Below, in pieces: positions 5,921 through 36,992 of a DNA stretch of 42,486 nucleotides. The DNA comes from a virus. Lineage: Duplodnaviria > Heunggongvirae > Uroviricota > Caudoviricetes. The first letter of the stretch is position 1, and each line of letters starts with the position of its first letter. Below the pieces are notes generated by a model that did not search any database, was not told where the DNA came from, and was given only the letters and a program-made list of their open reading frames with translations. Where the stretch lies: positions 1-42,486 of the IMG/VR virus record IMGVR_UViG_2541047683_000004; one strand, 5' to 3'. Made by a program: the position numbers and the translations under genes.

Positions 5921-5937
5921 ATTACCTTTCAGGTAAT
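5921..5937. promoter_or_regulatory. Operator-like palindrome ATTACC-N5-GGTAAT (copy 1)
   Basis: Perfect 17-bp palindrome attacctttcaggtaat in intergenic DNA between tailspike start and LexA-box gene. Confidence 0.6.
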
Positions 5938-5975
5938 TTGCAAAACGTGCTGGATAGCAAACAAATTATTTGCTA

Positions 5976-5991
5976 CTGTATAAATATACAG
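5976..5991 (+). promoter_or_regulatory. LexA (SOS) box CTGT-N8-ACAG
   Basis: tactgtataaatatacagtt matches LexA consensus taCTGTatatatataCAGta; 22 bp upstream of ATG 6014. Confidence 0.7.
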
Positions 5992-6013
5992 TTATTGCAT
6001 GGAGAAGATTAAG

Positions 6014-6271
6014 ATGCAGCAGTATCACTATCCACTGGAAGACGGATTTACCGAAAGGATTCACACGCCGGGAGGCGTCAGGTCACTGGTGGAGGGATCG
6101 CACTTGATGAAATTACTCCGGGATCTCGATAAGGATGGATTTAATGTCGATGGCCCACTTGCCGAACTGACTGCACTGATTAACTACGTCACCAGCTCAC
6201 AGATGTCTATGCGGGATCTGCAAACACATCTCGACTATTGTGCCGAACAATTACGAAAACAAACCCGGTAA
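6014..6271 (+). CDS. Small SOS-controlled antirepressor-like protein (stand-alone copy of the shared C-terminal module)
   Basis: 85 aa; GGAGAAG RBS; aligns to the C-terminal 70 aa of the two larger antirepressor-like proteins (LM.LL..L..DG..V.G..AELT ... RD.QTH..Y). Confidence 0.6.
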   Translation: MQQYHYPLEDGFTERIHTPGGVRSLVEGSHLMKLLRDLDKDGFNVDGPLAELTALINYVTSSQMSMRDLQTHLDYCAEQLRKQTR

Positions 6272-6293
6272 ATTTAAAGGCCGCAAGAGCGGC

Positions 6294-7022
6294 CTATCGT
6301 TTCGCTTTGTGCTCGTCCCAGCACGTTTTGCACCATGCCATTAAGCCGTCCGCATTTTGATTATTAGGGTAAAAGCTGGTCCGTTTTCTGCGGACATTAC
6401 AAATTGGGCACCACTTCATATGGCGTGTATTCTTTGGGCCATCGAGACACCTTGCACACCACTTAGTCAATCCATCTGGATTTTTTGACGATTTCCGGAA
6501 TTTGTCATATGGAAGGTTTATTCTGCATCGCAAACACTGCTTGCGGCCACTTGAAACTCTGTTAGCTGATTCTTCTTTTGACGGCGATACAGAAGGTATT
6601 CTTGCTGGCTCTGATACTGCCTGAGGTGCTTTTTTAGATGACTGAGACGATATGTCATCACCAGGGAATCTTCCATGATATGCCGGACGCGTTGACACTC
6701 CAGGTGGAAGCTCAGCTGTAAACGGCTTTGGCTGAATCAGTTGCCTCTCTTTTGCTAACTCCTGCTGTTTATAATATGTCTGGATTACCGCACTATCATA
6801 AGCAGGAGGTGCGGAAATATTAGGCGCATTACCTCCAGTTTTTTGAAACTGAGTAGAGGTGTGTTCTATCACCTGTGTACGATTAATCGTTATCTCCCCA
6901 TCTTCGGTCTTTATCGTTTTGTTATGATTAACGACCGTACGATCAGAGATCTTAGTCTTGTTCTGGTTGATAACGTAAATAATCACCGTAACCACACCAA
7001 CAACTATCCAGAAAACTTCCAT
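6294..7022 (-). CDS. Membrane-anchored protein with C-terminal double zinc-ribbon (2 x CxxC...WCxxC)
   Basis: N-terminal TM MEVFWIVVGVVTVIIYV, Pro/Ser-rich linker, two Cys4 units; GAGGAAAA RBS; 5-prime cassette identical to gene 10832. Confidence 0.6.
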   Translation of the reverse strand: MEVFWIVVGVVTVIIYVINQNKTKISDRTVVNHNKTIKTEDGEITINRTQVIEHTSTQFQKTGGNAPNISAPPAYDSAVIQTYYKQQELAKERQLIQPKPFTAELPPGVSTRPAYHGRFPGDDISSQSSKKAPQAVSEPARIPSVSPSKEESANRVSSGRKQCLRCRINLPYDKFRKSSKNPDGLTKWCARCLDGPKNTRHMKWCPICNVRRKRTSFYPNNQNADGLMAWCKTCWDEHKAKR

Positions 7023-7041
7023 TGCTTTTCCTCACAATAAC

Positions 7042-7058
7042 ATTACCTTAAAGGTAAT
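7042..7058. promoter_or_regulatory. Operator-like palindrome (copy 2)
   Basis: attaccttaaaggtaat, 14 nt upstream of RBS of gene 6294-7022. Confidence 0.6.
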
Positions 7059-7134
7059 ATCTTGCTTTCAGGTGATCAAGCATTAAACGCAACCAACCAA
7101 ATACGGTTGATTTTAATATTTCTTCGCGTTTATC

Positions 7135-7151
7135 ATTACCTTTGCGGTAAA
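7135..7151. promoter_or_regulatory. Operator-like palindrome (copy 3) abutting putative -35 TTTACA of leader promoter
   Basis: attacctttgcggtaaa; followed by TTTACA-N17-CATAGT. Confidence 0.55.
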
Positions 7152-7186
7152 TTTACATCGCACTCCTCTTGTGCCATAGTAATCGG

Positions 7187-7262
7187 GCACTGGCAAAATC
7201 CAGTGCCGGGATTGGCGTCCCGGATTACTAAAAGGCGCATTCACCGCGCAAGCGGTTTTTTT
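7187..7262 (+). ncRNA. Candidate small structured RNA (two hairpins plus intrinsic terminator) in antirepressor leader A; c4-like riboregulator candidate
   Basis: Hairpins gcactgg/ccagtgc and ccggg/cccgg, terminator accgc-gcaa-gcggt-T7; conserved with compensatory changes in inverted copy at 10096-10174. Confidence 0.4.
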
Positions 7263-7419
7263 ATGCGTATAGCACGGCCACATTCGTATTATGGTGGGCT
7301 GTGTGGGGGCACCGAAAGGTGCGCCGGGTCCTTTTAGCCGGTTACGCCAACCCTGCACAGTTCACCACCAACCGATTGGCGTCGGTAGTGGTGATTAACC
7401 AGACTAAAAGGTAACCACT

Positions 7420-8115
7420 ATGACAGCTACAAAAAGCACGTCCATTTTTTCTTTCGAATCCCAAGCCGATATACGGGTAATCGTCATTAATGGTGAGCCA
7501 TGGTTTATCGCTTCAGATGTTTGTCGGGCTATAGGCATAGCAAACCATCGAGATGCTGTTCGAAAACTTGATGATGATGAGAAGGGCGTCGCTTCAACCG
7601 ACACCCCTGGCGGTGAGCAAGAATCGATCATCATCTCCGAGTCAGGCCTCTACACACTGATCCTCCGCTGCCGCGACGCAGTGACACCAGGCACTATCCC
7701 CTACCGCTTTCGCAAATGGGTTACAGGTGAGGTTCTTCCTCAGATCCGCCGCACCGGAAGTTACATTAAAAACTCGCTCCCGCAGGAAGAACGCATAAAG
7801 ATGGTTGCCGACCAGGTAGCCAACGCCACGGCGTCAGCAGTAATGCAGGCGATGAAGATAGAGAACAAAACCTACAGCGCCCCGCTGAAGCCCGGCTACC
7901 GCAGTCTGATTCATTCGCCGTCTGGTGTTCTCGGCCTGACGGAGAACTCATTGCTGATGAATCTGCTGAATCAGTTGCAGGACGACGGGCATGATGTATC
8001 GGGCGCGGCGGCGGAACTGACCACCATGTTCTGCTACATCGTCGGTGTGAGCAAATGCCTGCGTGATATCCAGACCCACGCGGAGTACATCAACGACAAG
8101 GCAGGGTTCTTCTGA
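7420..8115 (+). CDS. Antirepressor-like protein, Bro-N type N-terminal domain plus shared C-terminal module
   Basis: N-terminal SIFSFESQADIRVIVINGEPWFIASDVCRAIGI resembles Bro-N; C-terminal 80 aa nearly identical to gene 9289-9939. Confidence 0.65.
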   Translation: MTATKSTSIFSFESQADIRVIVINGEPWFIASDVCRAIGIANHRDAVRKLDDDEKGVASTDTPGGEQESIIISESGLYTLILRCRDAVTPGTIPYRFRKWVTGEVLPQIRRTGSYIKNSLPQEERIKMVADQVANATASAVMQAMKIENKTYSAPLKPGYRSLIHSPSGVLGLTENSLLMNLLNQLQDDGHDVSGAAAELTTMFCYIVGVSKCLRDIQTHAEYINDKAGFF

Positions 8116-8159
8116 CGGGCGGTGGCACAGGGATGTGCCTTTAAATAATTCTGTACAGA

Positions 8160-8188
8160 TTGCAGACTGTGGGTGAATAGCGTACTAT
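8160..8188 (+). promoter_or_regulatory. Sigma70-like promoter TTGCAG-N17-TACTAT for cassette 8263-9216
   Basis: Hexamers with 17-bp spacer; operator palindrome overlaps -10 and start site. Confidence 0.5.
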
Positions 8189-8203
8189 TACCTCAAGGGT
8201 AAA
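8187..8203. promoter_or_regulatory. Operator-like palindrome (copy 4)
   Basis: attacctcaagggtaaa overlapping -10/+1 of cassette promoter. Confidence 0.55.
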
Positions 8204-8262
8204 CGGATTGGTTTCATTTTTATTAATCCGTGTAATGAACTTATGAGATATGAGGTAATGTC

Positions 8263-8442
8263 ATGCGAAACGAAAAATTGCAGATGCGTAGAGCGCAAGC
8301 TGCCGCAAGACGTTCTTTCAATGGAAGCGTAGAGTACGTAAAAGTTACTATGACAAAAGATCACGCAAGTCGCGTATCCCGCGCTTTCTTTGATTCTCGT
8401 AACAATAAGGAAAATTATGAGTTCGTCTGCGTCGCAGAATGA
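8263..8442 (+). CDS. Small basic protein (59 aa), candidate antitoxin or regulator
   Basis: GAGGT RBS 6 nt upstream of ATG; overlaps start of downstream gene by 26 nt; not in supplied ORF track because under 60 aa. Confidence 0.4.
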   Translation: MRNEKLQMRRAQAAARRSFNGSVEYVKVTMTKDHASRVSRAFFDSRNNKENYEFVCVAE

Positions 8443-8962
8443 TAAAAATCAAATTGTCAGATATAAGGGTCGAGTGTTGCATACGCAAAATTTCTCGGCC
8501 CTTTGTGCATCTGATCTTGAGCTGAAGAAAGTATCTGATGCCTTTACCCAGTATTGGAAAACGGGATACCATCCATCTCTTGGTAAAGATGCTGCATTTG
8601 CTCGTCCGACAGAAATGCTTAAACTAAATGTCAGGCATACTCATGTCGATAACCAAGACTATATTCCAGAAGATAGTGATAAAAAACACACTGGTAAAAA
8701 ATCATCTTGGGATGCATGGAAAAATATAGCGTCTGTACAAGTAAAATGCATACCAACAAGTGATTGCTTTTTAGTTTATTCGGTAAATCACAATCGTGAT
8801 GCGCTGGTTATGTTTTTTGTTGACGCAGATGCTCACAACATAACTGAGCAAGAAGAGTTTAAAGAGGAAGCAATCACTATCAGTTATCAATTCTTTGAGA
8901 AAACAAAAACAGAACCAATGCCTTTAGAAGAAGATCTTTTTTCTGATAAATGGAAGGAATAG
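8417..8962 (+). CDS. AT-rich accessory protein, possible YafO-like toxin (tentative)
   Basis: AAGGAAA RBS; motif pattern F..Y...G..P..GKD, RHTHV, FLVYS, DADAH resembles recalled YafO-family pattern; visibly AT-rich versus flanks. Confidence 0.4.
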   Translation: MSSSASQNDKNQIVRYKGRVLHTQNFSALCASDLELKKVSDAFTQYWKTGYHPSLGKDAAFARPTEMLKLNVRHTHVDNQDYIPEDSDKKHTGKKSSWDAWKNIASVQVKCIPTSDCFLVYSVNHNRDALVMFFVDADAHNITEQEEFKEEAITISYQFFEKTKTEPMPLEEDLFSDKWKE

Positions 8963-8982
8963 CCCGCAGCGCGGGCTTTTTT
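8963..8982 (+). terminator. Rho-independent terminator
   Basis: cccgc-agc-gcggg followed by T6. Confidence 0.6.
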
Positions 8983-9054
8983 GTGGACGAAACAAAAGTC
9001 AGTGCTACACTCATTGACGCCACATTGAGGTGGCTTATAGATGGAAATTTCACA

Positions 9055-9216
9055 ATGAAAAAAGCATTTGCTGCACTGTTCGTTTTATTGTCTCTGGTAG
9101 CTTCAACTCAGGCCTTTGCCGGTCGTTGTCAGCACGACAGCGATACTGCTGCTGACGGCTCCCGCTGCGGTGGGCGTTCTGCGGATTCCCGTCCGGGCGG
9201 CGGTGGCATTCGTTAA
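9055..9216 (+). CDS. Small secreted Gly/Arg-rich peptide (53 aa) with signal peptide
   Basis: MKKAFAALFVLLSLVASTQAFA signal then 31-aa Cys-containing tail; weak RBS. Confidence 0.35.
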   Translation: MKKAFAALFVLLSLVASTQAFAGRCQHDSDTAADGSRCGGRSADSRPGGGGIR

Positions 9217-9239
9217 AAACAAGGCCGCGAAAGCGGCCT
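9214..9239 (-). terminator. Intrinsic terminator for antirepressor gene B
   Basis: aggccgc-gaaa-gcggcct hairpin followed on minus strand by T-run. Confidence 0.55.
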
Positions 9240-9251
9240 GTGACATGTCAC
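9240..9251. repeat. Perfect 12-bp palindrome GTGACATGTCAC (copy 1 of 3)
   Basis: Exact palindrome between convergent genes. Confidence 0.6.
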
Positions 9252-9288
9252 GATAGTTTCGTTTTGCACATCCCTGTGCCGCCGCCCG

Positions 9289-9939
9289 TCAGAAGAACCC
9301 TGCCTTGTCGTTGATGTACTCCGCGTGGGTCTGGATATCACGCAGGCATTTACTCACACCGACGATGTAGCAGAACATGGTGGTCAGCTCCGCCGCCGCG
9401 CCCGATACATCGTGCCCGTCTTCCTGTAACTGGTTCAGCAGATTCATCAGCAGTGAGTTTTCCGTCAGGCCGAGAACACCAGACGGAGAATGAATCAGAC
9501 TGCGGTAGCCGGGCTTCAATGGGGCACTGTATTCTTTTTTGTCTTCCAGCTTGATCGCCTCCATAATGGCGGGCATGAAGCCTGACAAGACCTTCTCCAC
9601 TTTTGTTTCTTGTTGTCTTAAACGTTTCTCGCATTCAATGAAGTAGCGTCGTACCTGACGACCTTTTTCGTTACGCTCGACCATCGCCAGCTCTTTGGCT
9701 GTATCGAGGGTTAGGTGGTAGTCTTTTGCAGGACGGCCTCTGCCTATTTTTTCCCGAACTTGGGAAATAATCATAAAGTCTTGATTTTCAACGAAGCCAT
9801 ATTCAGCAATTCGTTCGACAATCCACGAAGCAAATCGCTTACCCACATCGAGGAAAGTGTGTAAATCACGGGCATTAACGAGAAGAGCGGTTTCGTTGGA
9901 TATAGTGCCGTTGAATACGGGGATGAGTTGAGCGTTCAT
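9289..9939 (-). CDS. Antirepressor-like protein, AntA/Rha-type N-terminal domain plus shared C-terminal module
   Basis: N-terminal LIPVFNGTISNETALLVNARDLHTFLDVGKRFASWIVERIAEYGFVENQDF resembles AntA-type domain; C-terminal 80 aa matches gene 7420-8115; GGAG RBS. Confidence 0.65.
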   Translation of the reverse strand: MNAQLIPVFNGTISNETALLVNARDLHTFLDVGKRFASWIVERIAEYGFVENQDFMIISQVREKIGRGRPAKDYHLTLDTAKELAMVERNEKGRQVRRYFIECEKRLRQQETKVEKVLSGFMPAIMEAIKLEDKKEYSAPLKPGYRSLIHSPSGVLGLTENSLLMNLLNQLQEDGHDVSGAAAELTTMFCYIVGVSKCLRDIQTHAEYINDKAGFF

Positions 9940-10095
9940 GATGGCGTCTCCACTTAGCGAATTACATCACCACCGCTGAGACCAATCAGATGGTGGTGAA
10001 CTGAACGGAGTTGGTCTTACCGGCCTAAGTGGTACCGGCGTCCTTTCGGACCCCCATTCAGCCCACCATAATTCTGGCATGACTGTGCTATACGC

Positions 10096-10174
10096 ATAAA
10101 AAAACCACGTCTGGCGTGGTATGCGCCACTTAGTAATCCGGGAGACCAATCCCGGCACTGGATTTTGCCAGTGC
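10096..10174 (-). ncRNA. Candidate small structured RNA in antirepressor leader B (inverted paralog of 7187-7262)
   Basis: Same hairpin-hairpin-terminator architecture; terminator stem differs in sequence but preserves pairing (ccacg-ccaga-cgtgg). Confidence 0.4.
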
Positions 10175-10209
10175 CTGATTACTATGGCACAAGAGGAATG
10201 CGATGTAAA

Positions 10210-10226
10210 TTTACCGCAAAGGTAAT
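10210..10226. promoter_or_regulatory. Operator-like palindrome (copy 5)
   Basis: tttaccgcaaaggtaat, inverted counterpart of copy 3. Confidence 0.55.
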
Positions 10227-10372
10227 GATAGACACAGACAAACATTAAAATCAACCATATTTGGTTAATGCGTGTAAAAGAGCCAGCAGCGAGAAATTGT
10301 GCCGCGACGTAAAATAACGAGCATCTGCTGGCTTACAACCAGCGATGTTTCAAATTTGTCACTACTATCAAC

Positions 10373-10771
10373 GTGCCATTCCACGGCGCAGAGCTTTATG
10401 TTGTCAATCACAACGGCGAACCGTATACCCCAATGAAACCTATCGTTGAGGGAATGGGGCTAGACTGGAAATCTCAACATAAGAAGATTTCTCAACGCTT
10501 CTCGAAGGGTATGGTGGAAATCACCATACCTTCTGCCGGTGGGGTGCAAGCCATGATTTGTATGGCTTTACGAAAATTGGCAGCTTGGTTGAACAGCATC
10601 AGCCCTAACAAAGTCCGCCCTGAAATCCGCGACAAGGTAATCCAGTATCAGGAAGAGTGTGACGATGTGCTCTACGAGTACTGGACTAAAGGCCATGTGG
10701 TTAACCCACGCAAAGCTAAAAAGGCGTTGCCGGGTAAAATCACTACTGAGCAACAGGAGGTATACACTTAA
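10373..10771 (+). CDS. Antirepressor N-terminal-domain-like protein, start codon unclear (possibly truncated remnant)
   Basis: Segment LYVVNHNGEPYTPMKPIVEGMGLDWKSQ resembles P22-antirepressor-type N-domain by recollection; only GTG or internal ATG starts, no good RBS. Confidence 0.35.
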   Translation: MPFHGAELYVVNHNGEPYTPMKPIVEGMGLDWKSQHKKISQRFSKGMVEITIPSAGGVQAMICMALRKLAAWLNSISPNKVRPEIRDKVIQYQEECDDVLYEYWTKGHVVNPRKAKKALPGKITTEQQEVYT

Positions 10772-10795
10772 CACTTGATCACATTAGCACAAAAC

Positions 10796-10812
10796 ATTAC
10801 CTTTAAGGTAAT
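10796..10812. promoter_or_regulatory. Operator-like palindrome (copy 6)
   Basis: attacctttaaggtaat 14 nt upstream of RBS of gene 10832; part of 49-bp block identical to that at 7020-7060. Confidence 0.6.
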
Positions 10813-10831
10813 GTTATTGTGAGGAAAAGCA

Positions 10832-11359
10832 ATGGAAGTTTTCTTAATCATCGTCGGCATCGTGATTATTAATTTTGTTTTTTTATTTATTGCAAAAAAA
10901 CAAAAAAGTAACGATATGCATGTTTCTACAACTGATGATCTTACCTTTGTAGAGCATGCACTGAATGTATCAGGATATAAACTCACCCCATACGGAGCTG
11001 GTGTATCACTCATGTCTTTAAGTAACGGTTTTTCAAAAGAAGAAACATTTTCACATATAGCTTTGATGGCTCTTTCTCAACACGCCAAAGTCGCAGGTAG
11101 TGACGCAATTGAGCTTAGTAAAGTTAGCATTCGTGCGATGTCGATAGCTGAAAACTTAACTAAATTATTCAGGAAAGGTCTTATTCGATCAGAAATATAT
11201 AAAAATGATTTGAATGCTATCATGGCTGTCAGCACAATTAATGAAAACCAAGAGGATTGGATTTCCATAGTTCTGGAAAGCAATAGCACATCTAACAAGG
11301 ATACTATTGCTTTGCCGATAAGTGCAGAAGCTTCTTTAGAAGCCATAAACAGCCATTGA
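10832..11359 (+). CDS. AT-rich membrane-anchored accessory protein (moron), function unknown
   Basis: N-terminal TM MEVFLIIVGIVIINFVFLFIA then soluble domain; visibly low GC; shares promoter-operator-RBS-TM cassette with gene 6294-7022. Confidence 0.55.
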   Translation: MEVFLIIVGIVIINFVFLFIAKKQKSNDMHVSTTDDLTFVEHALNVSGYKLTPYGAGVSLMSLSNGFSKEETFSHIALMALSQHAKVAGSDAIELSKVSIRAMSIAENLTKLFRKGLIRSEIYKNDLNAIMAVSTINENQEDWISIVLESNSTSNKDTIALPISAEASLEAINSH

Positions 11360-11380
11360 AAGAACTCCAATAAATATTGA

Positions 11381-27414: not shown

Positions 27415-28890
27415 TTAAGCATAGGGATCGTAATCTGTAATGGCCTTGCCTTGCTGGTTCTGCTGCCCGGGAATTCGCAGACGCTTCGACACAGGGAACG
27501 CAAACGTCAGCAGTAGCGCATCGCCTTTACCAGGAGAACGCCCAAGTCGCTCTTTGATATCTTCCTTCGGTTCGATAACGATTTTACCGTCCACGCGAAC
27601 TTTGTACTCTGCCGTCGACAGGTCGTCCGCTGTTTCCTGGTCATCCAGCATGCCGCCGAGCCTCAGCCATGTCTTGCATGAGTTGAACATCTCCCCACGC
27701 TTGTTGAGCATCTGCGGGTCAGTAGACGCGCCACCGAACGGAACAAGTTGCCATGTACGACCCCAGCCGTCACCGATTGACTTCAAACCGGTTCCGTAAC
27801 CGAAGTCGATGAACACCGCGTCAGCCTGATACTGGTCTTCAAAGTCAGCGATACGCTTCGCCATAATCAGATCGTCGGTAGTCTTGTTGCCAGTCCACAG
27901 CACCTTACTGTGTAGCCCCTGCCGCAGGTATATCACAGCGTCATCAACGCCGGAGTATGCCGGGTCAACGCCGATTATCACCGGAGCATGCGCCACCTGC
28001 GCAGCGGTTACCACCCGTTTCATTGCCTCATCAGTAAGACCGGTAGGGATAAACTGCAATTCAGATGCATCAGGGAATATGCCGCGCACACGGATTTTAA
28101 CGAAGTCGCTGTCTTCCCCGTAGTCATCAACCCATTTCTGCAACTGCTGTTTGTTAGTGCCTTCCACCGTCCGGCTGTCAATCTGCGCAGTTTTCCAGCG
28201 GTGTTTATATTTGCGGAAACATTCACGGAATCGCCCGGTATTACGCGTCGGGTTTCCGAACGCCACCCAGATAATCTCAGTGTCTTCGTCAGTTAGCGCA
28301 CCTTCGGCAACTTCCCACACCAGATCCGCAATGTTCGACGCTTCATCGAATACCACGATGATGCGTTTGCGCTCGTTGTGTAGTCCGGCGAATGCCTCAG
28401 TGTTGTGCTCAGACCAGGGGATTGCGTCAGCTCGCCACCGCTTGTCGTGCCCAGGATCATTGCTGTACATCGCGGTAGCGGTACAGGTAAACCAGTCTTT
28501 CGTGATAGCAAGGTTCGACCACTTGATAATTTCCGGCCAGGTCTTCGTTCGTAGCTGGTTGTCGGTGTTGGCGGTCACCACGACCTTACAATCCTCGCAA
28601 GTGGACATGCCCCAGTTGATCAGCATTGAGATGAATGCGGATTTACCAATACCGTGACCAGAAGCACGTGCCAGCATAAGCGGCTGATATTGCGTCTCTG
28701 GATTCTGCAGGTGATCACGTATCTCTCGGAACGCATCGGCCTGCCACTGACGTGGACCGGTGGCATGTGCCAGTTCAGTACCCTCTTCCCCCCACGGGAA
28801 CGCATAGAGGGCATAGCCAAGCGGATCGTGAGTGAACCCTGCAATATCCTCGATCAACTGCTCTTCAGGAGATAACGCTGTATCTGTCAC
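27415..28890 (-). CDS. Terminase large subunit
   Basis: 491 aa; Walker A-like RASGHGIGKSAF; position after small subunit. Confidence 0.8.
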   Translation of the reverse strand: MTDTALSPEEQLIEDIAGFTHDPLGYALYAFPWGEEGTELAHATGPRQWQADAFREIRDHLQNPETQYQPLMLARASGHGIGKSAFISMLINWGMSTCEDCKVVVTANTDNQLRTKTWPEIIKWSNLAITKDWFTCTATAMYSNDPGHDKRWRADAIPWSEHNTEAFAGLHNERKRIIVVFDEASNIADLVWEVAEGALTDEDTEIIWVAFGNPTRNTGRFRECFRKYKHRWKTAQIDSRTVEGTNKQQLQKWVDDYGEDSDFVKIRVRGIFPDASELQFIPTGLTDEAMKRVVTAAQVAHAPVIIGVDPAYSGVDDAVIYLRQGLHSKVLWTGNKTTDDLIMAKRIADFEDQYQADAVFIDFGYGTGLKSIGDGWGRTWQLVPFGGASTDPQMLNKRGEMFNSCKTWLRLGGMLDDQETADDLSTAEYKVRVDGKIVIEPKEDIKERLGRSPGKGDALLLTFAFPVSKRLRIPGQQNQQGKAITDYDPYA

Positions 28891-29483
28891 TGATTACCAT
28901 CCTGACGTTCTTTGAGTCGCTTCCTGGCTGCCGCTATGCGATCAGCAATTGTCACATTCACATTAACATCCAGGCGTTCTTTGAACGCGTTGACGTCGAC
29001 GTGCTTACCAATCAGTTCGAGGTTCTTCACCTTGTCAGGCCATTTAATTTTTTTGAGGATTGTCTCTATCGAATCCTCGTTCATGTTCATGATGGTCGAT
29101 GACAGATCAAAGCCACTAAGCGTAGTGCGCCAGATTTTCGGCCACTCGCGGATTGGCTTAAGGCTCCCATCGTCGTTGAGGATGTCGATCACGTCCATCT
29201 GGTCGATCTCCACCAGGCGCATGAGAACGTAATCAGCACTGACGCGCATTCGTTTGTTGCGCTCCTCCATCAACTCGGCAATCCGTTTTTGAATGCGTTC
29301 ATCGCGCATCATGACACTGGCTTTAACTGCCGCTGTATTTGGGGAGAATCCTGCGTTAATCGCTGCCTGAGTCTGGTTTTCAGGCGTTTTGATGTATGAC
29401 TGGCAATAAGCCTCCTGCATTGCTGTGAGCGGCTTAAATTGCGTTGATTTGCGTTTATAGGTTTTAGGTTCAGCAGGCATCAT
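28887..29483 (-). CDS. Terminase small subunit
   Basis: Start moved to internal ATG 29483; helix-turn-helix-like N-terminus; overlaps large subunit start. Confidence 0.6.
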   Translation of the reverse strand: MMPAEPKTYKRKSTQFKPLTAMQEAYCQSYIKTPENQTQAAINAGFSPNTAAVKASVMMRDERIQKRIAELMEERNKRMRVSADYVLMRLVEIDQMDVIDILNDDGSLKPIREWPKIWRTTLSGFDLSSTIMNMNEDSIETILKKIKWPDKVKNLELIGKHVDVNAFKERLDVNVNVTIADRIAAARKRLKERQDGNQ

Positions 29484-29557
29484 AACCACCGTGGTAATAG
29501 TTACCGTTGTGGTAATAGTACCATGCAAAATAAAGCCGCCATAGTTGGCGGCAGTAT

Positions 29558-29770
29558 TCAAAGTCCATCAAATTCATCGTAAAAACTCTCGTCAAGATAC
29601 CCTTCCCATTTACCGCGAATGAAAATTACATCCTCGCCGCAAGGGTGCTGACTGTCGATAACTATATCCCTCCTGGCGCAACCATACTTATGCATGAGAA
29701 ATTTAACCTCTTTCGGAAAATTTGCTGAGTTATCTCTCATATCTTCAAGGTCGTAGCGTATTTTTGGCAT
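29558..29770 (-). CDS. Small hypothetical protein (70 aa)
   Basis: ATG 29770 with AAGGTG RBS; palindrome copy 3 lies just upstream. Confidence 0.45.
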   Translation of the reverse strand: MPKIRYDLEDMRDNSANFPKEVKFLMHKYGCARRDIVIDSQHPCGEDVIFIRGKWEGYLDESFYDEFDGL

Positions 29771-31427: not shown

Positions 31428-31428
31428 A

Positions 31429-31617: not shown

Positions 31618-31790
31618 CTTACTGCGTACCCTTTCTTCCGCCTGTTCTGTGACGCAGTAGGCTTACGCTTTGCGGCAAAAGCCACCTGACCAAATGGATG
31701 GAGTACCGCTATCTTATGGTTGCTAATAACCAGCTCCACCACACGCACAGGCCGCTGTAAAAAAAGTCGTTTTGCCTTACGGTTTTTCAT
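31614..31790 (-). CDS. Small basic protein, paralog 1 (MKNRKAK...)
   Basis: 58 aa, same N-terminal MKNRKAK as downstream ORF; not in ORF track (under 60 aa). Confidence 0.3.
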   Translation of the reverse strand: MKNRKAKRLFLQRPVRVVELVISNHKIAVLHPFGQVAFAAKRKPTASQNRRKKGYAVR

Positions 31791-31962
31791 CGCTTTGCTC
31801 TCCTGCGTCTCTTTGCTGCTCGTCGTGCCGCTGCAATACCGGTATGGCGGCGCTTTGGTGCCGGGATGATGTTGTCAGCCATCAGGACATGTGGCTTTGC
31901 AATTAGCGCAGAAGCCCAAAAACGAGTCGGGTACGGTAACAAGCTGATACATACCACACGCA

Positions 31963-32790: not shown

Positions 32791-32814
32791 AGAATGGACA
32801 TGGTAGTAGGTTGC

Positions 32815-33444
32815 TCATGAATGCACTCCCTTGTGAAGCTGTTCCGCACAATGCAGCAGGGCGTCAGTCGCCTCTTTCACCGTAACGCAGTCGCCATCGT
32901 CCAGCCCGGACACCGACGCGTGCTTAACGAACGCCGCGCAAAGGTCATCAAACGCCTTAGCCCGGACTTCAGCCAGGAAAGCATCGGTGGCTGGGGTTTC
33001 GATATTAGGCAGAAGCGCATAATCGCAAATCGTATCGATCGCAGGATCGCAACAGTCATCCTCGTTGCGTGGTCGTTCGCCAACCTTCGTTGACGATTGC
33101 ATGATGATTCCCCAGCAAATACTATCGACCTCTTCGCTCCATCCATCGCAAGCATCACCGCGATAGTCGTCAATTGCAGCCTCAGCCGATTCGATAGCTT
33201 CCTCAGCAGTTTTGTGCCATTCGAAATTATGCTCAGAGCCATATGAGAAATATGAATGTCCCGCCTTCATCACCGCATTCTCCGCTGCCAGCGCATTAGC
33301 ACGCACCAGTTGCACTTCCAGTTGCGTTGCCAAATCGCTGATCAGCTTTGCCACACTGCGCATATCAACGGCACCACATTCTGCTTTCAGTTCCGAAGCC
33401 ATCTCATGCCCGGCGGAAACTAACCCTTTGATATTACTTTCCAT
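32815..33444 (-). CDS. Hypothetical acidic phage protein (209 aa)
   Basis: ATG with AAGG RBS. Confidence 0.45.
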   Translation of the reverse strand: MESNIKGLVSAGHEMASELKAECGAVDMRSVAKLISDLATQLEVQLVRANALAAENAVMKAGHSYFSYGSEHNFEWHKTAEEAIESAEAAIDDYRGDACDGWSEEVDSICWGIIMQSSTKVGERPRNEDDCCDPAIDTICDYALLPNIETPATDAFLAEVRAKAFDDLCAAFVKHASVSGLDDGDCVTVKEATDALLHCAEQLHKGVHS

Positions 33445-33505
33445 CTTTACCTTCGCTTATCCACATAACTTATTGATTACATTGATAACTAAAAAGATCG
33501 TCGAT

Positions 33506-33850
33506 TCAGAACTCTTCGATGTTCCAGCCACCACCTGCTTTCTTTGGCTTAACCGTTACCCCGATGATTCGGAACGGATACTGATCTGCGGCGACTTTGG
33601 TTTTCACCCTGGCGTCGTCGGTCCAGAAACCTTTCACTTCGTGCAGTTCCATCTCGCCGGTGGCGAGCATCACAGCAAAATCGGGCGTATAGAACGTGTT
33701 GTCAGCTAACCGCAACTTGATACCCTCGAATCGATACCAGGCGATTTCCCCTGCACGTTTACGCTGCTCAAGGTGCTGGCAATACGCAGATTCTGTTTTG
33801 TTCATCTGGCCTGTTTTGAGTCGACCAAGAGCCTGTATCTGTTTTCTCAT
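33506..33850 (-). CDS. Small phage protein (114 aa), DUF1064-like (tentative)
   Basis: Operator copy abuts its ATG. Confidence 0.45.
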   Translation of the reverse strand: MRKQIQALGRLKTGQMNKTESAYCQHLEQRKRAGEIAWYRFEGIKLRLADNTFYTPDFAVMLATGEMELHEVKGFWTDDARVKTKVAADQYPFRIIGVTVKPKKAGGGWNIEEF

Positions 33851-33852
33851 GA

Positions 33853-33869
33853 TTTACCTCTAAGGTAAT
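33853..33869. promoter_or_regulatory. Operator-like palindrome (copy 8)
   Basis: tttacctctaaggtaat. Confidence 0.55.
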
Positions 33870-33914
33870 TAAAAACCACATAAGACACGAAATCAATAGA
33901 GTTTAGAATGTTTT

Positions 33915-33931
33915 GTTACCTGATAGGTAAT
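33915..33931. promoter_or_regulatory. Operator-like palindrome (copy 9)
   Basis: gttacctgataggtaat; with copy 8 brackets a candidate internal promoter. Confidence 0.55.
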
Positions 33932-33967
33932 TATTGAGACGTAAAAAAATGCGCTATCGCGCTGGTA

Positions 33968-34744
33968 TTACTTGATAAATCCTGCCGCCTTTCCCCGCCT
34001 GTATTCCTCCATCAGCCACTGCGCCGGTGTTATTCCCCCCAGGGTGGCGGCGTTAGGCATACACCCGAAACTTCGCCCTGGTGGATGGTAAACGTCTCTC
34101 CCTGTGTCCGGAGGCGTACTCATGGGCTCTGGCTTTGCCTGTATGCTGATCACCGGATCGGGTATCTGCTGTCCGGAAGCCACCTTTTTCGCCCAATCAT
34201 CGAGCAGCCTGCGCGCGTGTTTCTCAACCTCAATCTCGCTAAGCTGGCGCTGATACATTGCACGGCGGGTATCACATACGACCCAGTACATAACCGGATG
34301 TCGCCACGGGAATCTTTCGGGACCACCAGGATATAAACTTTTTTCCTTGCTGTACCGGTGAAACTCCGCCATCACATCGTCAATGGTGACGCCAAGAACC
34401 ATCTTGCTGTCTTTGCACCACTTGATGAATTGCCCAGGCGACGGCCAGAACGGAGATTCACTGGCGCGGGCGTGGCGCATACCAGCGTTAACCTGTTCCA
34501 TTGTTGTGATCCCATTCTCCAGAAAGGCAAGCATCCATTGCTTACGGAATTCATTAAGTTTGTTCTGCTCCCTTATGGTCGAAACGCTTGCAGGAAATGC
34601 AGCCTGTAACTGGACAAATAGTTCATTGAAAATTCTAGCAACCTGCTCCTTTTTGCCATTGCTGTCACGCCGCTCTTCATGCACAGCAACACCATGCTCA
34701 CGTAAGCGATCGTACTCATTGAGAAGTTCTGGAGTTGATTTCAT
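33968..34744 (-). CDS. Putative replication protein (258 aa)
   Basis: Downstream of and overlapping the iteron-containing initiator-like gene; GGGGTG RBS. Confidence 0.45.
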   Translation of the reverse strand: MKSTPELLNEYDRLREHGVAVHEERRDSNGKKEQVARIFNELFVQLQAAFPASVSTIREQNKLNEFRKQWMLAFLENGITTMEQVNAGMRHARASESPFWPSPGQFIKWCKDSKMVLGVTIDDVMAEFHRYSKEKSLYPGGPERFPWRHPVMYWVVCDTRRAMYQRQLSEIEVEKHARRLLDDWAKKVASGQQIPDPVISIQAKPEPMSTPPDTGRDVYHPPGRSFGCMPNAATLGGITPAQWLMEEYRRGKAAGFIK

Positions 34745-35546
34745 CCCACACCCCTTCTATCCAGTCAGTGTTATTCCAGTCAAGCTCATCGCTTTTCCCG
34801 GCGTTTTTTGATTTTCCCCTGATATGATTTACGTGCCTGGCGAATTTTTGTTCCCACTGAACCTGCGTGAACACTTTGCCCTCAGCCATCCAGTAATCCC
34901 GGAATGCAGCAAGTTCAGCAGGTGTAAATTCCGGTTCCGGCAGGGCCGTTCCCCACAGCGCAGCACGCCGTCGAAAATCCGGCGACGGATGCCAGCCATC
35001 GGTCATCGGAAATTTCCCGATGGGTTCACTCAGGCCATCCAGAAATTCAGGTTCAGCCACCTGCAACGGCATACCGTTCGCTTCACTGGTCGGAGCACCA
35101 TCGCGCACGTGCGCTATGTGTGGGGTTTTATATATATCTTCCTCTTCCTCTTCCTCTGGTAACTCCTTTTGTAACGCTGTTGGCGTTACTTTTTGCGTTA
35201 CTCGTTTTCGATGCTCTGCCACTCTTCTATTCGTAAGTGCACGTTTTTTCGATGATTCTCCATTATGTCGCTCAAAGTTTGGAAGGATTAGTTTGCCGTC
35301 ATGATAAGCAAGCCATCCGACGCTAATGAGGGCGTCAGCAAATCCTGTAATAAAAGCGAGTCTATCAAGTACTCCTTTTGTAACGCTGCCAGCGTTACCG
35401 TCTATTGTTTGCTGGTCAGCCCATGCCCATATACGAACCAGCTTTCCAAGAACAGCATCTGGATCAATACCCAGAATTTCTGCTATCTGAAAAATTTCAG
35501 GTTTATCAGGAGTGATAACTTCAACCTTAATCCAGCTGCTTGCCAT
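34716..35546 (-). CDS. Putative replication initiator with acidic linker; contains iteron-like repeats
   Basis: Start at ATG 35546 with GAGGGGAA RBS; poly-Glu linker; two palindromic repeats inside the gene. Confidence 0.5.
   Translation of the reverse strand: MASSWIKVEVITPDKPEIFQIAEILGIDPDAVLGKLVRIWAWADQQTIDGNAGSVTKGVLDRLAFITGFADALISVGWLAYHDGKLILPNFERHNGESSKKRALTNRRVAEHRKRVTQKVTPTALQKELPEEEEEEDIYKTPHIAHVRDGAPTSEANGMPLQVAEPEFLDGLSEPIGKFPMTDGWHPSPDFRRRAALWGTALPEPEFTPAELAAFRDYWMAEGKVFTQVQWEQKFARHVNHIRGKSKNAGKSDELDWNNTDWIEGVWDEINSRTSQ
35162..35398. repeat. Iteron-like repeats (candidate origin of replication)
   Basis: ACTCCTTTTGTAACGCTG at 35162-35179 and 35371-35388, each followed by palindromic partner GCGTTAC. 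Confidence 0.5.
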
Positions 35547-35721
35547 AGGTTTCCCCTCTTGCACTCTTTAGTGCACAAGCAAATTCATTACGATGGCGGT
35601 TGGCGCTATTCATTGCACATTCAACACATGTTCCGTTCAGAACATACCTTTCAGAGAGATGGCCGTGACGGCACCGCTTTCCTGTGAAATAGCGATTTAA
35701 CCCGGCTTTTGCGGCCTCCAT
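35527..35721 (-). CDS. Small Cys/His-rich protein (64 aa), possible zinc-binding regulator
   Basis: ATG 35721; motif CRHGH ... CVEC. Confidence 0.35.
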   Translation of the reverse strand: MEAAKAGLNRYFTGKRCRHGHLSERYVLNGTCVECAMNSANRHRNEFACALKSARGETYGKQLD

Positions 35722-35837
35722 TCTGGTTACTATCTTCAATTTTTCCGCCCCTTTTTGTTATTGATATTGGCTATTTTGCACAATTGGAAAATTTGATCAA
35801 CCAGATTTGGTTTTTTATTACCTTTGAGGTGCGAATA

Positions 35838-35865
35838 GATATGAAAAGACCGCCAGGTGGCGGTC
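35838..35865 (-). terminator. Intrinsic terminator after Cro-like gene
   Basis: gaccgcc-acct-ggcggtc followed on minus strand by T-run. Confidence 0.55.
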
Positions 35866-35887
35866 TACAGAGGGTTGTGGCTGAATA

Positions 35888-36118
35888 TCATGAGTAGAAG
35901 AAGTATGCCAGTTCTGCTTTTGAGCGCAGCCATTGTCTTGTTTTACAGGCTTTAAAAAGCCCATTCATCAATACCTTACCTGGCATTTTGCGCTTACCTG
36001 TTAAGTGAGTCTGGATATAGTGACTCGTCGTTCCGGCTTCCTGTGCGAAGGCTTCACGCTCATCCGGAGTAAGTGCAAGCCAGTGCTTTTTGAAATCGAA
36101 ATGTCCGTTATCGCTCAT
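35888..36118 (-). CDS. Cro-like small HTH regulator (76 aa)
   Basis: Divergent from repressor gene across operator-rich region; helix-turn-helix-like segment EAFAQEAGTTSHYIQ. Confidence 0.5.
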   Translation of the reverse strand: MSDNGHFDFKKHWLALTPDEREAFAQEAGTTSHYIQTHLTGKRKMPGKVLMNGLFKACKTRQWLRSKAELAYFFYS

Positions 36119-36130
36119 AGCTATTGCCTG

Positions 36131-36154
36131 ATATTTATTTCAGATAATAAATAT
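36131..36154. promoter_or_regulatory. AT-rich inverted repeat ATATTTATT-N6-AATAAATAT in immunity region
   Basis: 9-bp perfect arms, 13 nt upstream of Cro-like ATG. Confidence 0.45.
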
Positions 36155-36201
36155 TCACCCATAAGGTAACAAAAATCAAGGATAGTTACCTATGGGGTGC
36201 A

Positions 36202-36218
36202 TTTACCTGTTGGGTAAT
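36202..36218. promoter_or_regulatory. Operator-like palindrome (copy 10) in immunity region
   Basis: tttacctgttgggtaat; nearby inverse arrangement GGTAAC...GTTACC at 36165-36190. Confidence 0.55.
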
Positions 36219-36272
36219 ATTGCTTTAAATTGAATCATCTACTGATTCATATATGAGGCGATTTTCCAGAAA

Positions 36273-36857
36273 ATGAAAAGTATCCAGGACGTCCGCAGGC
36301 AAAATCTCAACGACTTGATCGACCGTGAATTCAATGGTGTTCAGACGCGGATGGCAGAAAAACTTGGAACTCAGGCAAATCTGGTAAACCGCTGGGCTCT
36401 TGGCAAGAAGGTTATCGGCGACCAGGTTGCGCGAAAAATTGAAGCTGCCGCCAATAAACCCCGTAACTGGCTTGATATCGATCGCTCGCTTTCTCAGGAA
36501 GGTTTTCAGCCTGTCGGCCCAAGCGACATTGGTCAGCTGGCAGCTCACAACCTGGAACGCTGGATGAGCGAAAGCCGCGACCTTTCAACACAGGGAAAAC
36601 TTCACCGCGCATCCGGCGTAGCCCAGGTGACAATCAGCCGCCTGTTAAACAATGAGGTCAGCGTTTCCATTTCCACCCTGGAGAATGTTGCATCCGCATT
36701 CGGGCGTCACGGCTATGAATTACTGATTCACCCGCACGACCCTGCGACCATCAACTATGATCGCTCGCGCTACGCATTGTTACCCGAAACCGAGAAAGCA
36801 AAGATCGAAAGTTACATTGAATTTGTCATCAACCAGAACGAAAAAAACAAACAATAA
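36273..36857 (+). CDS. Phage repressor candidate with two tandem XRE-type HTH domains
   Basis: Two helix-turn-helix-like segments (residues about 20-45 and 105-130); monocistronic between operator clusters; terminator downstream. Confidence 0.6.
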   Translation: MKSIQDVRRQNLNDLIDREFNGVQTRMAEKLGTQANLVNRWALGKKVIGDQVARKIEAAANKPRNWLDIDRSLSQEGFQPVGPSDIGQLAAHNLERWMSESRDLSTQGKLHRASGVAQVTISRLLNNEVSVSISTLENVASAFGRHGYELLIHPHDPATINYDRSRYALLPETEKAKIESYIEFVINQNEKNKQ

Positions 36858-36878
36858 AACCATATTTTTCAGTAAGTA

Positions 36879-36902
36879 AGCCGCCTTATGGCGGCTTTTT
36901 TA
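36879..36902 (+). terminator. Intrinsic terminator after repressor gene
   Basis: agccgcc-ttat-ggcggct followed by T6. Confidence 0.65.
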
Positions 36903-36913
36903 TTGCCTATTCG

Positions 36914-36930
36914 ATTACCTAACGGGTAAT
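36914..36930. promoter_or_regulatory. Operator-like palindrome (copy 11)
   Basis: attacctaacgggtaat upstream of -35. Confidence 0.6.
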
Positions 36931-36948
36931 TTTTTTAACTCATATCTA

Positions 36949-36977
36949 TTGACATCAAACCATATACGCATAATTAT
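36949..36977 (+). promoter_or_regulatory. Early promoter TTGACA-N16-TAATTA
   Basis: Consensus -35 with near-consensus -10, flanked by two operator palindromes. Confidence 0.55.
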
Positions 36978-36992
36978 TACCTAAACGGTAAC
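36976..36992. promoter_or_regulatory. Operator-like palindrome (copy 12) overlapping -10/+1
   Basis: attacctaaacggtaac. Confidence 0.6.

Follow-up and report, generated by a model that had tools for sequence, protein, structure and literature searches.

The closest described systems are the Rep/Ant/LexA antirepression switch of phage SPC32H (PDB 5D50, 5D4Z), reportedly the work of Kim and Ryu in 2013 and of Kim and colleagues in 2016, and the gp38 repressor of phage ε15, whose protein_bind features are said to come from Kropinski and colleagues in 2007. In the ε15 RefSeq record (NC_004775.2), seven dispersed sites at loci orthologous to those studied here are marked 'protein_bind, repressor, lysogeny', among them 12–27 (terS), 2931–2947 and 19895–19911 (orthologues of our sites 26415 and 5921); the annotated sites stand before terS, the late operon and the tail fibre, as well as before the PL-type region and the post-replication promoter. 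Three of them, read directly, are ATTACC-N5-GGTAAT, the same consensus as ours. Our scan of that record returned 11 exact core matches, which include all seven; the unmarked ones are the OR pair, the lysis site and 35969. For SPC32H, Rep is described as a tetramer on palindromic sites that is broken by Ant; the TetDloop fold at its C-terminus is the one through which the analogue Rco loops DNA (PMC9638917; PMC9986798). Overexpression of ORF21 of phage ZX5 cuts endolysin and holin transcripts by 99.97–99.99% and abolishes free phage (PMC9782041).

The window analysed here, i.e. the whole stretch of 42,486 nucleotides, is a Uetakevirus similar to ε15, phiV10, TL-2011b and ZX5. A motif scan found 13 exact matches to TTACC-N5-GGTAA (5921, 7042, 7135, 8187, 10210, 10796, 26415, 29500, 33853, 33915, 36202, 36914 and 36976), against a chance expectation of 0.01, and none of 100 shuffles reached 13. 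The 5-nt spacers of these sites differ almost throughout. A previous sequence-only reading had listed at least 12 copies with an intact core, all of which we recovered; it overlooked the copy at 29500–29516 and put the chance expectation at 0.04. In addition to the exact copies, three degenerate partners were detected, likewise absent from that reading, with one (29482–29498 and 36154–36170) or two (36185–36201) core mismatches.

Nine of the 13 exact sites fall within the 6% of the window that is free of ORFs in an over-inclusive greedy map of ORFs of 50 aa or more, and the remaining four overlap spurious ORFs only. As genes, we rejected ORFs 7062–7337 and 9967–10254, which overlie Rfam isrK/C4 RNAs, and ORF 36977–37195, which is antisense to an annotated phiV10p39 homologue; ORF 28887–29561 was rejected as a gene extent, being terS lengthened to a TTG start, with the real ATG at 29480. 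No exact copy therefore lies in a genuine gene, as the sequence-only reading had claimed when it called all copies intergenic. The sole near-match within a real gene (2950–2964, one mismatch) codes for the conserved VTSAVE of a gp23-like membrane protein and looks like a chance occurrence.

The repressor of the window (36273–36857, plus strand, 194 aa), a member of the SPC32H/ε15 Rep family, is homologous over its full length to SPC32H Rep, whose structure is solved (PDB 5D50_A, E 4e-42, residues 1–190), and it is 100% identical to the phiV10 repressor and to ZX5 ORF21. Its identity to SPC32H Rep is 42% overall, 53% in the N-terminal and 38% in the C-terminal domain, and the recognition helix NLVNRW is invariant despite an overall identity of 42–43% among relatives. 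In the domain naming of PMC9986798, Rep binds DNA with an HTH domain at its N-terminus, dimerises through an HTH-like middle domain and has a C-terminal domain for tetramerisation and Ant binding; Pfam matched HTH_3 at residues 106–147 and, weakly, a YdaS-type HTH at 21–61. In the label 'double-HTH repressor' used in the sequence-only reading, the second HTH (the HTH_3 match) corresponds to the dimerisation domain and not to another DNA reader. A perfect LexA box (CTGTATAAATATACAG, 5976–5991), kept in relatives, precedes a small plus-strand antirepressor gene, ant (5999–6271), whose product matches PDB 5D50_E 'Anti-repressor protein' (E 1.6e-46, ~87% identity). The exact operator at 5921–5937, lies in the divergent intergenic region between the tailspike gene (3688–5817, minus strand) and ant, and both it and the LexA box are kept in SPC32H, ε15 and BUCT711. 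The dispersed palindromes are very probably operators of Rep that would be released all together by LexA-controlled Ant. The proposal that a single repressor governs many scattered operons is supported by the Rep homology, by the silencing seen with ZX5 ORF21 and by the annotation of the ε15 sites.

In the immunity region, where the sequence-only reading had placed copies next to the repressor gene, operators flank rep. On one side lies an OR-type tripartite operator (36154–36218) with sites at 36154–36170 (TCACC...GGTAA), 36185–36201 and 36202–36218, of which the last is exact, at spacings of 31 and 17 bp. The first of them covers part of the -35 of a leftward promoter, TTGTTA(36172–36167)-17-TATTAT(36149–36144), that serves a cro-like gene; no promoter in register with 36202 is convincing. 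The same three-site layout occurs in ε15 and SPC32H (17 and 30 bp), with the TCACC variant kept. On the other side, as the earlier reading had noticed, two operators bracket an early promoter. These are 36914–36930 and 36976–36992, 62 bp apart, and the promoter is rightward and PL-type (TTGACA at 36949–36954, 17-nt spacer, AATTAT at 36972–36977); its -10 shares its final two bases with the start of the operator, and this architecture is kept in ε15, SPC32H and Tyrion.

The cro-like gene, divergent from rep across the three-site operator in the style of a lambdoid switch, encodes a 76-aa protein (35888–36118, minus strand) that is 76–84% identical in ε15, SPC32H and Tyrion, with an invariant stretch, EAGTTSHYIQTHLT; its putative HTH is as invariant across the genus as the motif itself. 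It is possible that this protein is a second reader of the OR-type sites and, conserved equally with Rep, it may read the same sites. That it is the main reader, or shares all sites with Rep as λ CI and Cro do at OR/OL, we consider unlikely; early and accessory promoters would then be shut off during lytic growth. A Pfam search of the protein gave no HTH or other match, the sites are credited to the repressor in the ε15 annotation, and Rep overexpression alone silences lytic genes. Within the genus the two proteins are inseparable because nothing co-varies there. Cro-like homologues are confined to Uetakeviruses and one Psychrobacter phage, pOW20-A, in which a partial homologue adjoins ATACCT-N3-AGGTAT sites; however, pOW20-A also has a CI resembling the Rep N-terminal domain and so does not discriminate. 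In Pseudomonas phage PseuP_224, a CI whose N-terminal domain is 39% identical to that of Rep, and whose C-terminus reads by eye as S24-type, is flanked by ATTACC-N4-GGTAAT, and a search for a Cro-like homologue in this phage found none. In this out-group comparison of one or two phages, the half-site appears to track the Rep N-terminal domain and not the Cro-like protein, which favours Rep between the two binders that the sequence-only reading had named.

Operators and promoters are joined in a fixed register. At 7 of 13 sites the -10 hexamer ends on operator bases 1–2 (0/2000 controls), and the mean promoter score in that register was 7.69/12, compared with 6.17±0.30 for AT-matched controls (0/2000 reached the observed value) and at most 6.31 for every other register. 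Sites 36914 and 33915, which are upstream partners, 7042, beside a ribosome-binding site, 29482, which lies against the terS ATG and includes the SD-like GGTGG of that gene, and 36202 fit simple -10 occlusion poorly; 5921 and 26415 have ambiguous targets. A second 62-bp pair occupies 33853–33931 (minus strand): 33915–33931 lies upstream and 33853–33869 at the -10/+1 of promoter TTGATT-17-TTTAAT, which serves a DUF1064 gene (33506–33850) and the genes downstream, and the latter operator includes the SD and stops 2 nt before the ATG. In a five-phage alignment of this region, the terminator, both operators and the -35 are invariant while the downstream gene differs. Directly upstream of terS (28887–29480, minus strand), an abutting doublet (29482–29516) combines the exact site 29500–29516 with the degenerate one 18 bp away, behind a terminator (29552–29535) and an extended -10 (TGgTACTAT); the same 18-bp doublet precedes terS in ε15 (12, 30) and Tyrion (67, 85). 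Operator 26415–26431 has the late operon on one side (first gene 26119–26325, minus strand) and is crossed by a rightward promoter, TTGACA(26394–26399)-17-TACCTT, which is conserved and reads away from that operon towards tRNA-Arg(TCT) at 26753–26829. The earlier description of the operator as upstream of the late operon is correct physically; a functional link to that operon would be tentative.

The window also carries operators on accessory genes. Segments 6997–8138 and 9266–10857 form an inverted duplication with arms 83–86% identical, so that 7042/10796 and 7135/10210 are paralogous pairs and the exact sites amount to about 11 independent ones. In the first module (7042–8115, plus strand), operator 7042–7058 lies in the 5'UTR of a minus-strand membrane-protein gene (6294–7022), and 7135–7151 is fused to promoter TTGATT(7107)-18-TATCAT(7131–7136), behind which Rfam and Pfam place isrK RNA (7187–7262), C4 antisense RNA (7287–7372) and a Bro-N protein (7420–8115). 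In its inverted paralogue (9289–10812, minus strand), operator 10210–10226 sits on TTGATT-18-TATCAT ahead of isrK (10098–10174), C4 (9989–10073) and an AntA-domain protein (9289–9939), and 10796–10812 precedes a plus-strand membrane-protein gene (10832–11359; TTAACA-18-AAACAT). In the YafO cassette (8160–8962, plus strand), operator 8187–8203 is fused to candidate promoter TTGCAG-17-TACTAT (8160–8188), where a copy had already been placed, and heads a small ORF (8263–8442) and a YafO-toxin-like gene (8390–8962); TL-2011b has a YafO family toxin annotated at this locus, with the operator kept. The extra operators would control two P1-immI-like isrK/C4-antirepressor modules and the YafO cassette.

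Conservation bears on the remaining alternatives. Exact cores occur at orthologous loci in ε15 (11), SPC32H (10) and Tyrion (9), Klebsiella phage BUCT711 has nine at N5 and one at another spacing, the 62-bp (63 at one BUCT711 pair) and 17/18-bp spacings are kept across the genus, and half-sites are invariant where flanks diverge. Binding of a host factor, or a non-transcriptional role in packaging, in recombination or as replication iterons, is very improbable for these sites, even though the ε15 annotation puts IHF sites beside two repressor sites and a 1-mismatch copy adjoins attP/int in ε15, SPC32H and Tyrion: this sits badly with the fixed register to -10 hexamers, the OR/OL-type positions flanking rep and a half-site that follows the phage repressor domain into Pseudomonas. 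Likewise, Klebsiella phage phi13.3, which encodes Rep, has an operator on its isrK/C4 module, whereas the module of VT2-Sakai, where a search found no Rep homologue, has none. To our knowledge, this consensus belongs to no enterobacterial regulator. Least credible of all is a short repeat, with the palindrome itself unselected, that became dispersed as promoter cassettes were duplicated or recombined. This would suit the paralogous pairs and the similar hexamers of several promoters (e.g. TTGATT, TACTAT) but not ten half-site bases that stay invariant while the 5-nt spacers differ, both in the duplicated arms and between phages with flanks diverged beyond recognition, nor the nearly all-different spacers of the 13 sites.

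With Rep as the reader, its N-terminal HTH domain would recognise the half-site ATTACC(T), and in the lysogen Rep tetramers would occupy 13 strong and about 3 weak operators. Where a sigma-70 promoter is fused to the operator, as at most sites, the transcript would begin within the operator, and because the -10 hexamer ends on operator bases 1–2, bound Rep would occlude the -10/+1 region. Two promoters have a second operator upstream at a distance of exactly 62 bp, or about 6 helical turns, and there a tetramer might use its two DNA-binding pairs to grip the two operators at once, with the promoter enclosed between them; such a loop is energetically demanding, and the spacing could instead come from shared promoter ancestry. 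The predicted regulon comprises the PL-type and PR/OR-type early arms, terS and the post-replication operon, together with the late-operon/tRNA region and the tailspike/ant region, to which this phage would add the two isrK-C4-antirepressor units, the two membrane-protein genes and the YafO cassette. On DNA damage, LexA would leave its box and Ant would be made, bind the Rep C-terminal domains and break the tetramer, freeing all operators at once; this scheme of induction is carried over from SPC32H by homology.

Among known systems, the dispersal resembles that of P1/P7 C1, where one repressor serves many scattered operons including the C4-antisense-RNA/antirepressor promoter (immI, Op51-c4-icd-ant). 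In P1, a C1 monomer unrelated to HTH_3/XRE proteins recognises operators that are asymmetric 17-mers. The likeness to P1 drawn by the sequence-only reading is therefore functional, with Rfam C4 behind operators 7135 and 10210, whereas here the sites are palindromic, the proposed reader is an XRE-type tetramer and induction would go through a LexA-controlled Ant rather than Coi/Ant1-2. As in λ/P22 CI-Cro, rep and the cro-like gene diverge from a three-site operator between them, further operators are found past the repressor gene at a PL-type promoter, and repression would be by promoter overlap; in contrast to λ/P22 CI, Pfam found no RecA-mediated autocleavage domain in Rep, the operators reach structural, packaging and accessory promoters well outside the immunity region, and the proposed binding unit is a tetramer. 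Many repressor sites dispersed in short intergenic gaps are also known for mycobacteriophage L5 gp71 ('stoperators') and N15 CB, whose sites include the antirepressor locus, but L5 sites are asymmetric, orientation-dependent elongation blocks, while ours are symmetric and mostly in register with -10 hexamers. SPC32H shares the gene order, the full-length Rep homologue, a near-identical Ant, the LexA box on the ant promoter, and ATTACC-N5-GGTAAT sites that agree in locus and in their 62- and 17-bp spacings. Its Rep is far less similar than its Ant, and five operators of the window belong to acquired modules absent from SPC32H (isrK/C4 with Bro-N or AntA, membrane proteins, YafO). On the PL side ε15 has three sites instead of two, and it lacks isrK/C4 modules. 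The lysis-cassette operator is degenerate in the window (about 3166–3184), unlike in SPC32H, and exact in ε15, so the regulon is not fixed. Since ε15 was already annotated with the same motif at the same places as repressor-binding, the palindrome system is a correct rediscovery and not a new kind.

An exhaustive scan of both strands of the window found TTACC-N5-GGTAA intact at 13 sites, where 0.01 would be expected; none of 100 dinucleotide-preserving shuffles gave as many. All 12 copies listed in the sequence-only reading were recovered, and a further exact site at 29500-29516 corrects that count to 13. The consensus of the 13 sites is aTTACCtnwnaGGTAAt, two-fold symmetric (ATTACC/GGTAAT), with ten invariant core bases, T at spacer position 1 in 11 sites and spacers that are nearly all distinct. 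A relaxed scan added a site with one core mismatch that abuts 29500 (29482-29498), one with one mismatch at 36154-36170, and one with two mismatches at 36185-36201, adjoining the exact site at 36202. The claim that all copies are intergenic, and the two-strand scan proposed as its check, came out as anticipated, with no exact copy inside a real gene: nine of the 13 lie in the 6% of the window sequence that no ORF of at least 50 aa covers, and for the remaining four the overlapping ORFs are all spurious, as settled by hand, the greedy ORF map (94% coding) being prone to overcall genes. The only in-gene near-match, at 2950 with one mismatch, was rejected as an operator, because the coding segment around it is conserved, as is the peptide it encodes. 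Since 6997-8138 and 9266-10857 are inverted copies of one another, 7042/10796 and 7135/10210 are paralogous operator pairs.

The window phage is a Uetakevirus whose immunity region is 97-98% identical to those of ZX5, HEMP4, TL-2011b and phiV10, Tyrion and ε15 being more distant relatives. The gene order, from the lysis genes at the left to int at the right end, matches that of a prophage opened near attP. The ε15 RefSeq record (NC_004775.2) carries seven "protein_bind / repressor / lysogeny" features, located 5' of terS, 5' of the first late gene, in the gap between gp19 and the tail fibre, past the repressor gene (three) and after the replication genes (one). The three of these that we read directly contain ATTACC-N5-GGTAAT, and in a scan of the record exact core matches coincided with all seven. 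Exact operators with N5 spacing number 11 in ε15, 10 in SPC32H and nine each in Tyrion and Klebsiella phage BUCT711 per whole genome, where about 0.5 each would be expected even allowing up to one mismatch, and they occupy orthologous positions across the four. The site pairs at the PL-type and post-replication promoters are separated by 62 bp in every genome (63 in one BUCT711 pair), and the spacings in the OR-type region (17 plus 30/31 bp) and upstream of terS (18 bp) are conserved too. In alignments the half-sites are invariant and the flanks diverged, even where the downstream gene is different.

The ε15 record also holds unmarked sites, four exact copies and one with a single mismatch (24704, 33341, 33358, 33388 and 35969), which include the entire OR-type cluster between the repressor gene and gp39. 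Another one-mismatch copy, TTACCnTAAAGGTAT, is conserved just 5' of int in the attP region (26882 in ε15, 26960 in SPC32H, 28568 in Tyrion) and could act as a weak operator for the int promoter; DNA matching this locus falls past the right end of the window. The primary papers on ε15, phiV10 and SPC32H reportedly define and test the repressor operator; a full-text literature search with one consensus string gave no match. No repressor-binding features are annotated in the phiV10 record, nor is an operator defined in the ZX5 paper (PMC9782041).

Promoters and operators stand in a preferred register in the window, with the -10 element ending on operator bases 1-2. This is the arrangement of the PL-type promoter (36949-36977; TTGACA-17-AATTAT, running into TACC), of the promoters at operators 7135 and 10210 (TTGATT-18-TATCAT), 33853 (TTGATT-17-TTTAAT), 10796 (TTAACA-18-AAACAT) and 8187 (TTGCAG-17-TACTAT), and of the terS promoter, which has an extended -10 (TGgTACTAT). 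The mean best promoter score in this register was 7.69 of 12, compared with 6.17±0.30 at AT-matched control positions; none of 2000 control samples attained it, and no other register scored above 6.31. Scores of at least 8 were found at seven of the 13 operators in the fused register, against two at most in any other. Such a register suggests that repression would act by occlusion of the -10 and +1. The OR-type site at 36154 overlies the -35 of the promoter that reads leftward into the Cro-like gene, and 36914 and 33915 are upstream partner operators, exactly 62 bp away. It is plausible that a repressor tetramer would bridge such a pair and enclose the promoter, because the tetramer described for SPC32H combines two pairs of DNA-binding domains with a tetramerisation fold of the looping type.

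A consensus promoter scan gave no convincing late-operon promoter near operator 26415. The invariant TTGACA at 26394-26399 lies on the strand opposite the late operon, and with its -10 (TACCTT) forms a promoter directed across the operator at tRNA-Arg(TCT) (26753-26829). The repressor may directly control this rare-codon tRNA. A tRNA-Arg gene is found at the equivalent place in SPC32H. The gap that separates the first late gene from operator 26415 also holds a block of about 56 nt, CTACGNTAAATAAATCATATGTGGTTAAATTGGTAATAATTTAATTGCGTACGGAG (26326-26390, minus strand), whose sequence hardly varies among the window, ε15, SPC32H and Tyrion, with upstream flanks that cannot be aligned. The block has no good sigma-70 match and may function as a late promoter that needs an activator, or as a structured leader. 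As for the lysis cassette, its operator is exact in ε15 (24704), carries one mismatch in SPC32H and Tyrion, and is degenerate in the window, where only the right half GGTAA is left beside a TTGACA (~3166-3184, minus strand); the window lineage may no longer have its lysis genes under direct repressor control.

The accessory DNA that extends from ant to the end of the late operon holds five operators. Two of them head units resembling P1 immI, made of an isrK RNA, a C4 antisense RNA and either a Bro-N or an AntA protein, two fall within the 5'UTRs of paralogous membrane-protein genes, and one heads a YafO-toxin-like cassette; ε15 and SPC32H have none of these isrK/C4, membrane-protein and YafO modules. 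The RNAs at 7187-7372 (plus strand) and 9989-10174 (minus strand), behind operators 7135 and 10210, score 77.9 and 67.7 bits with Rfam isrK and 77.7 and 61.2 bits with Rfam C4 (gathering threshold 45), and they lie in the leaders of the antirepressor-type genes that follow (Bro-N, 7420-8115; AntA, 9289-9939). The two isrK/C4 copies lie in the arms of the inverted duplication, giving a P1/P7 immI layout in an ε15-like podovirus. In Tyrion, the site at 21393 is 5' of an annotated antirepressor gene. The YafO cassette (8187-9216) comprises a small upstream ORF (8263-8442), the YafO-toxin-like gene (8390-8962) and a small ORF (8950-9216); TL-2011b has a "putative transmembrane anchored protein" annotated just 3' of its YafO gene. 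With a promoter-fused operator in front, the cassette looks like a toxin-type "moron" that is apparently repressed in the lysogen, which is unusual.

Beside the tailspike gene lies a small Ant homologue (about 86-90 aa; 5999-6271, plus strand) that matches 5D50_E, the SPC32H antirepressor, with an E value of 1.6e-46 and about 87% identity. A perfect LexA box, CTGTATAAATATACAG (5976-5991), precedes the ant start region by 8 nt, and a LexA box on the ant promoter is kept in SPC32H, ε15 and BUCT711. Although Ant is about 87% identical to its SPC32H counterpart, its presumed target, the C-terminal region of the repressor, is just 38% identical, suggesting either that the few conserved positions include the contact residues or that there has been reassortment between Ant and Rep. 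In the interval from operator 5921 to the start of the tailspike gene (~5860-5890), a lone ATTACC half-site within the invariant ATTCTATTACC and a CCATATATGG-type palindrome are both conserved in four phages, and the tailspike strand there reads GGTAATAGAAT, with a possible -10 (TAGAAT).

The sequence-only reading had named two candidate binders, the 194-aa repressor Rep (36273-36857, plus strand) and the 76-aa Cro-like protein (35888-36118, minus strand). Rep matches SPC32H Rep over its full length (PDB 5D50_A; phmmer E value 4e-42, residues 1-190) and the separate C-terminal domain structure (5D4Z; E value 4e-20), and the repressors of phiV10 and ZX5 have exactly its sequence (100% identity). 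Pfam gave only HTH-type hits for Rep, and no Peptidase_S24 or LexA-like autocleavage domain. SPC32H Rep is described as a three-domain protein that binds DNA through its N-terminal domain and dimerises through the middle one, the C-terminal domain, which is p53-like, serving both for tetramerisation and for binding Ant; the tetramer binds palindromic sites through DNA-binding pairs that come from different dimers, and is split by Ant (PMC9638917; PMC9986798). The "second HTH" called by Pfam (residues 106-147) therefore corresponds to the dimerisation domain. Overexpression of the ZX5 repressor abolished free phage and lowered endolysin and holin transcripts by more than 99.9% (PMC9782041). Repression by this identical protein, together with the SPC32H description, gives indirect support to the prediction that a Rep tetramer binds the operators and is released by Ant. 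Between the window phage and ε15/SPC32H, Rep is 42-43% identical overall (53% in the N-terminal and 38% in the C-terminal domain); despite this low identity its NLVNRW helix is invariant, which fits the unchanged operator half-site.

Inside the genus the two candidates are inseparable, because the Cro-like protein is also highly conserved, and covariation between repressor and operator is unusable, since recognition helix and motif are both invariant. We used out-groups instead, Pseudomonas phage PseuP_224 and Psychrobacter phage pOW20-A, whose CI N-termini are 38-39% identical to that of Rep. The PseuP_224 CI gene is flanked by ATTACC-N4-GGTAAT sites (1420-1475 and 2293-2338); its product has an N-terminus 39% identical to Rep's and a C-terminus that reads as S24-type by eye, and no Cro-like homologue was found in this phage. 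A change of dimerisation module might account for half-sites of the same sequence standing one base closer together. pOW20-A has ATACCT-N3-AGGTAT sites (1395-1465), a Rep-like N-terminal domain in a protein annotated as "CI-like repressor", and a partial Cro-like homologue; with both candidates present, this phage does not tell them apart. Moraxella Mcat9 showed only AT-rich, loosely similar repeats. From the PseuP_224 and pOW20-A sequences, the DNA-reading module and its half-site seem far older and wider than Uetakevirus, with spacing following the oligomerisation domain. A natural experiment points the same way, favouring Rep as the reader: the isrK/C4 leader module is common to hundreds of Stx and other phages, with homology beginning just past the operator, and at the operator position Klebsiella phage phi13.3, which encodes a Rep homologue, has ATTACCAAAATGGTAAA, whereas VT2-Sakai, not among the phage records with a Rep homologue, has nothing operator-like.

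Packaging, tailspike, tRNA and accessory toxin/antirepressor modules share the operator of the early operons, an arrangement that suggests direct control by the repressor and not a cascade. Three ideas would jointly take the operator set beyond an on/off list, a prospect we consider tentative and somewhat doubtful; we found no earlier description of any of them. The conservation of 62-bp pairs at two unrelated promoters and the p53-like "TetDloop" tetramerisation domain of Rep suggest that one tetramer clamps both sites, holding the promoter in a micro-loop. A single operator specificity is found genus-wide (E. coli, Salmonella, Klebsiella and Enterobacter phages) though the Reps are just 42-45% identical, and immunity groups might be set by Ant-Rep pairing, not DNA recognition. 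Rep could also stand above a second tier of P1-type, isrK/C4-gated Bro-N/AntA antirepressors, acting once released on the repressors of co-resident prophages. The operator set reveals no new kind of regulation; what remains of interest is the 62-bp pairing, the single specificity with divergent Reps and the Rep-controlled second-tier antirepressors. It provides a complete, testable Rep regulon map for the phiV10/ZX5/TL-2011b group of E. coli O157/O103-associated prophages, whose records lack operator annotation, and design rules for reporters and engineering (-10/operator fusion plus a 62-bp partner). The mode of action of the ZX5 repressor and antirepressor was a "mystery" to its authors (PMC9782041).

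With regard to known systems, λ-type CI undergoes RecA-stimulated self-cleavage, whereas Rep has no S24 domain and the PseuP_224 CI, with the same N-terminal domain, reads as S24-type. The likeness to the dispersed C1 operators of P1, drawn in the sequence-only reading, holds at the functional level, C4-type units included, but protein and operator type differ, and the window system therefore stands outside the P1 C1 family. The C1 protein has no relationship to the HTH_3/XRE-type Rep, which is a homologue of SPC32H Rep, and the C1 operator is an asymmetric 17-bp sequence (ATTGCTCTAATAAATTT type), in contrast to the symmetric, palindromic operators of the window. An operator-controlled C4 RNA 5' of an antirepressor gene, as in P1 immI, does occur in the window, as a shared module and not as a sign of C1 membership. 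With SPC32H and ε15 the window shares a full-length Rep homologue without S24, Ant by the tailspike, the LexA box and operators at the ε15-annotated loci. Because every sequence-level defining feature tested was found, the window system is, by these features, a member of the SPC32H/ε15 Rep-Ant-LexA system; the phenomenon is already known, and the window genome is a new, somewhat expanded instance of it.
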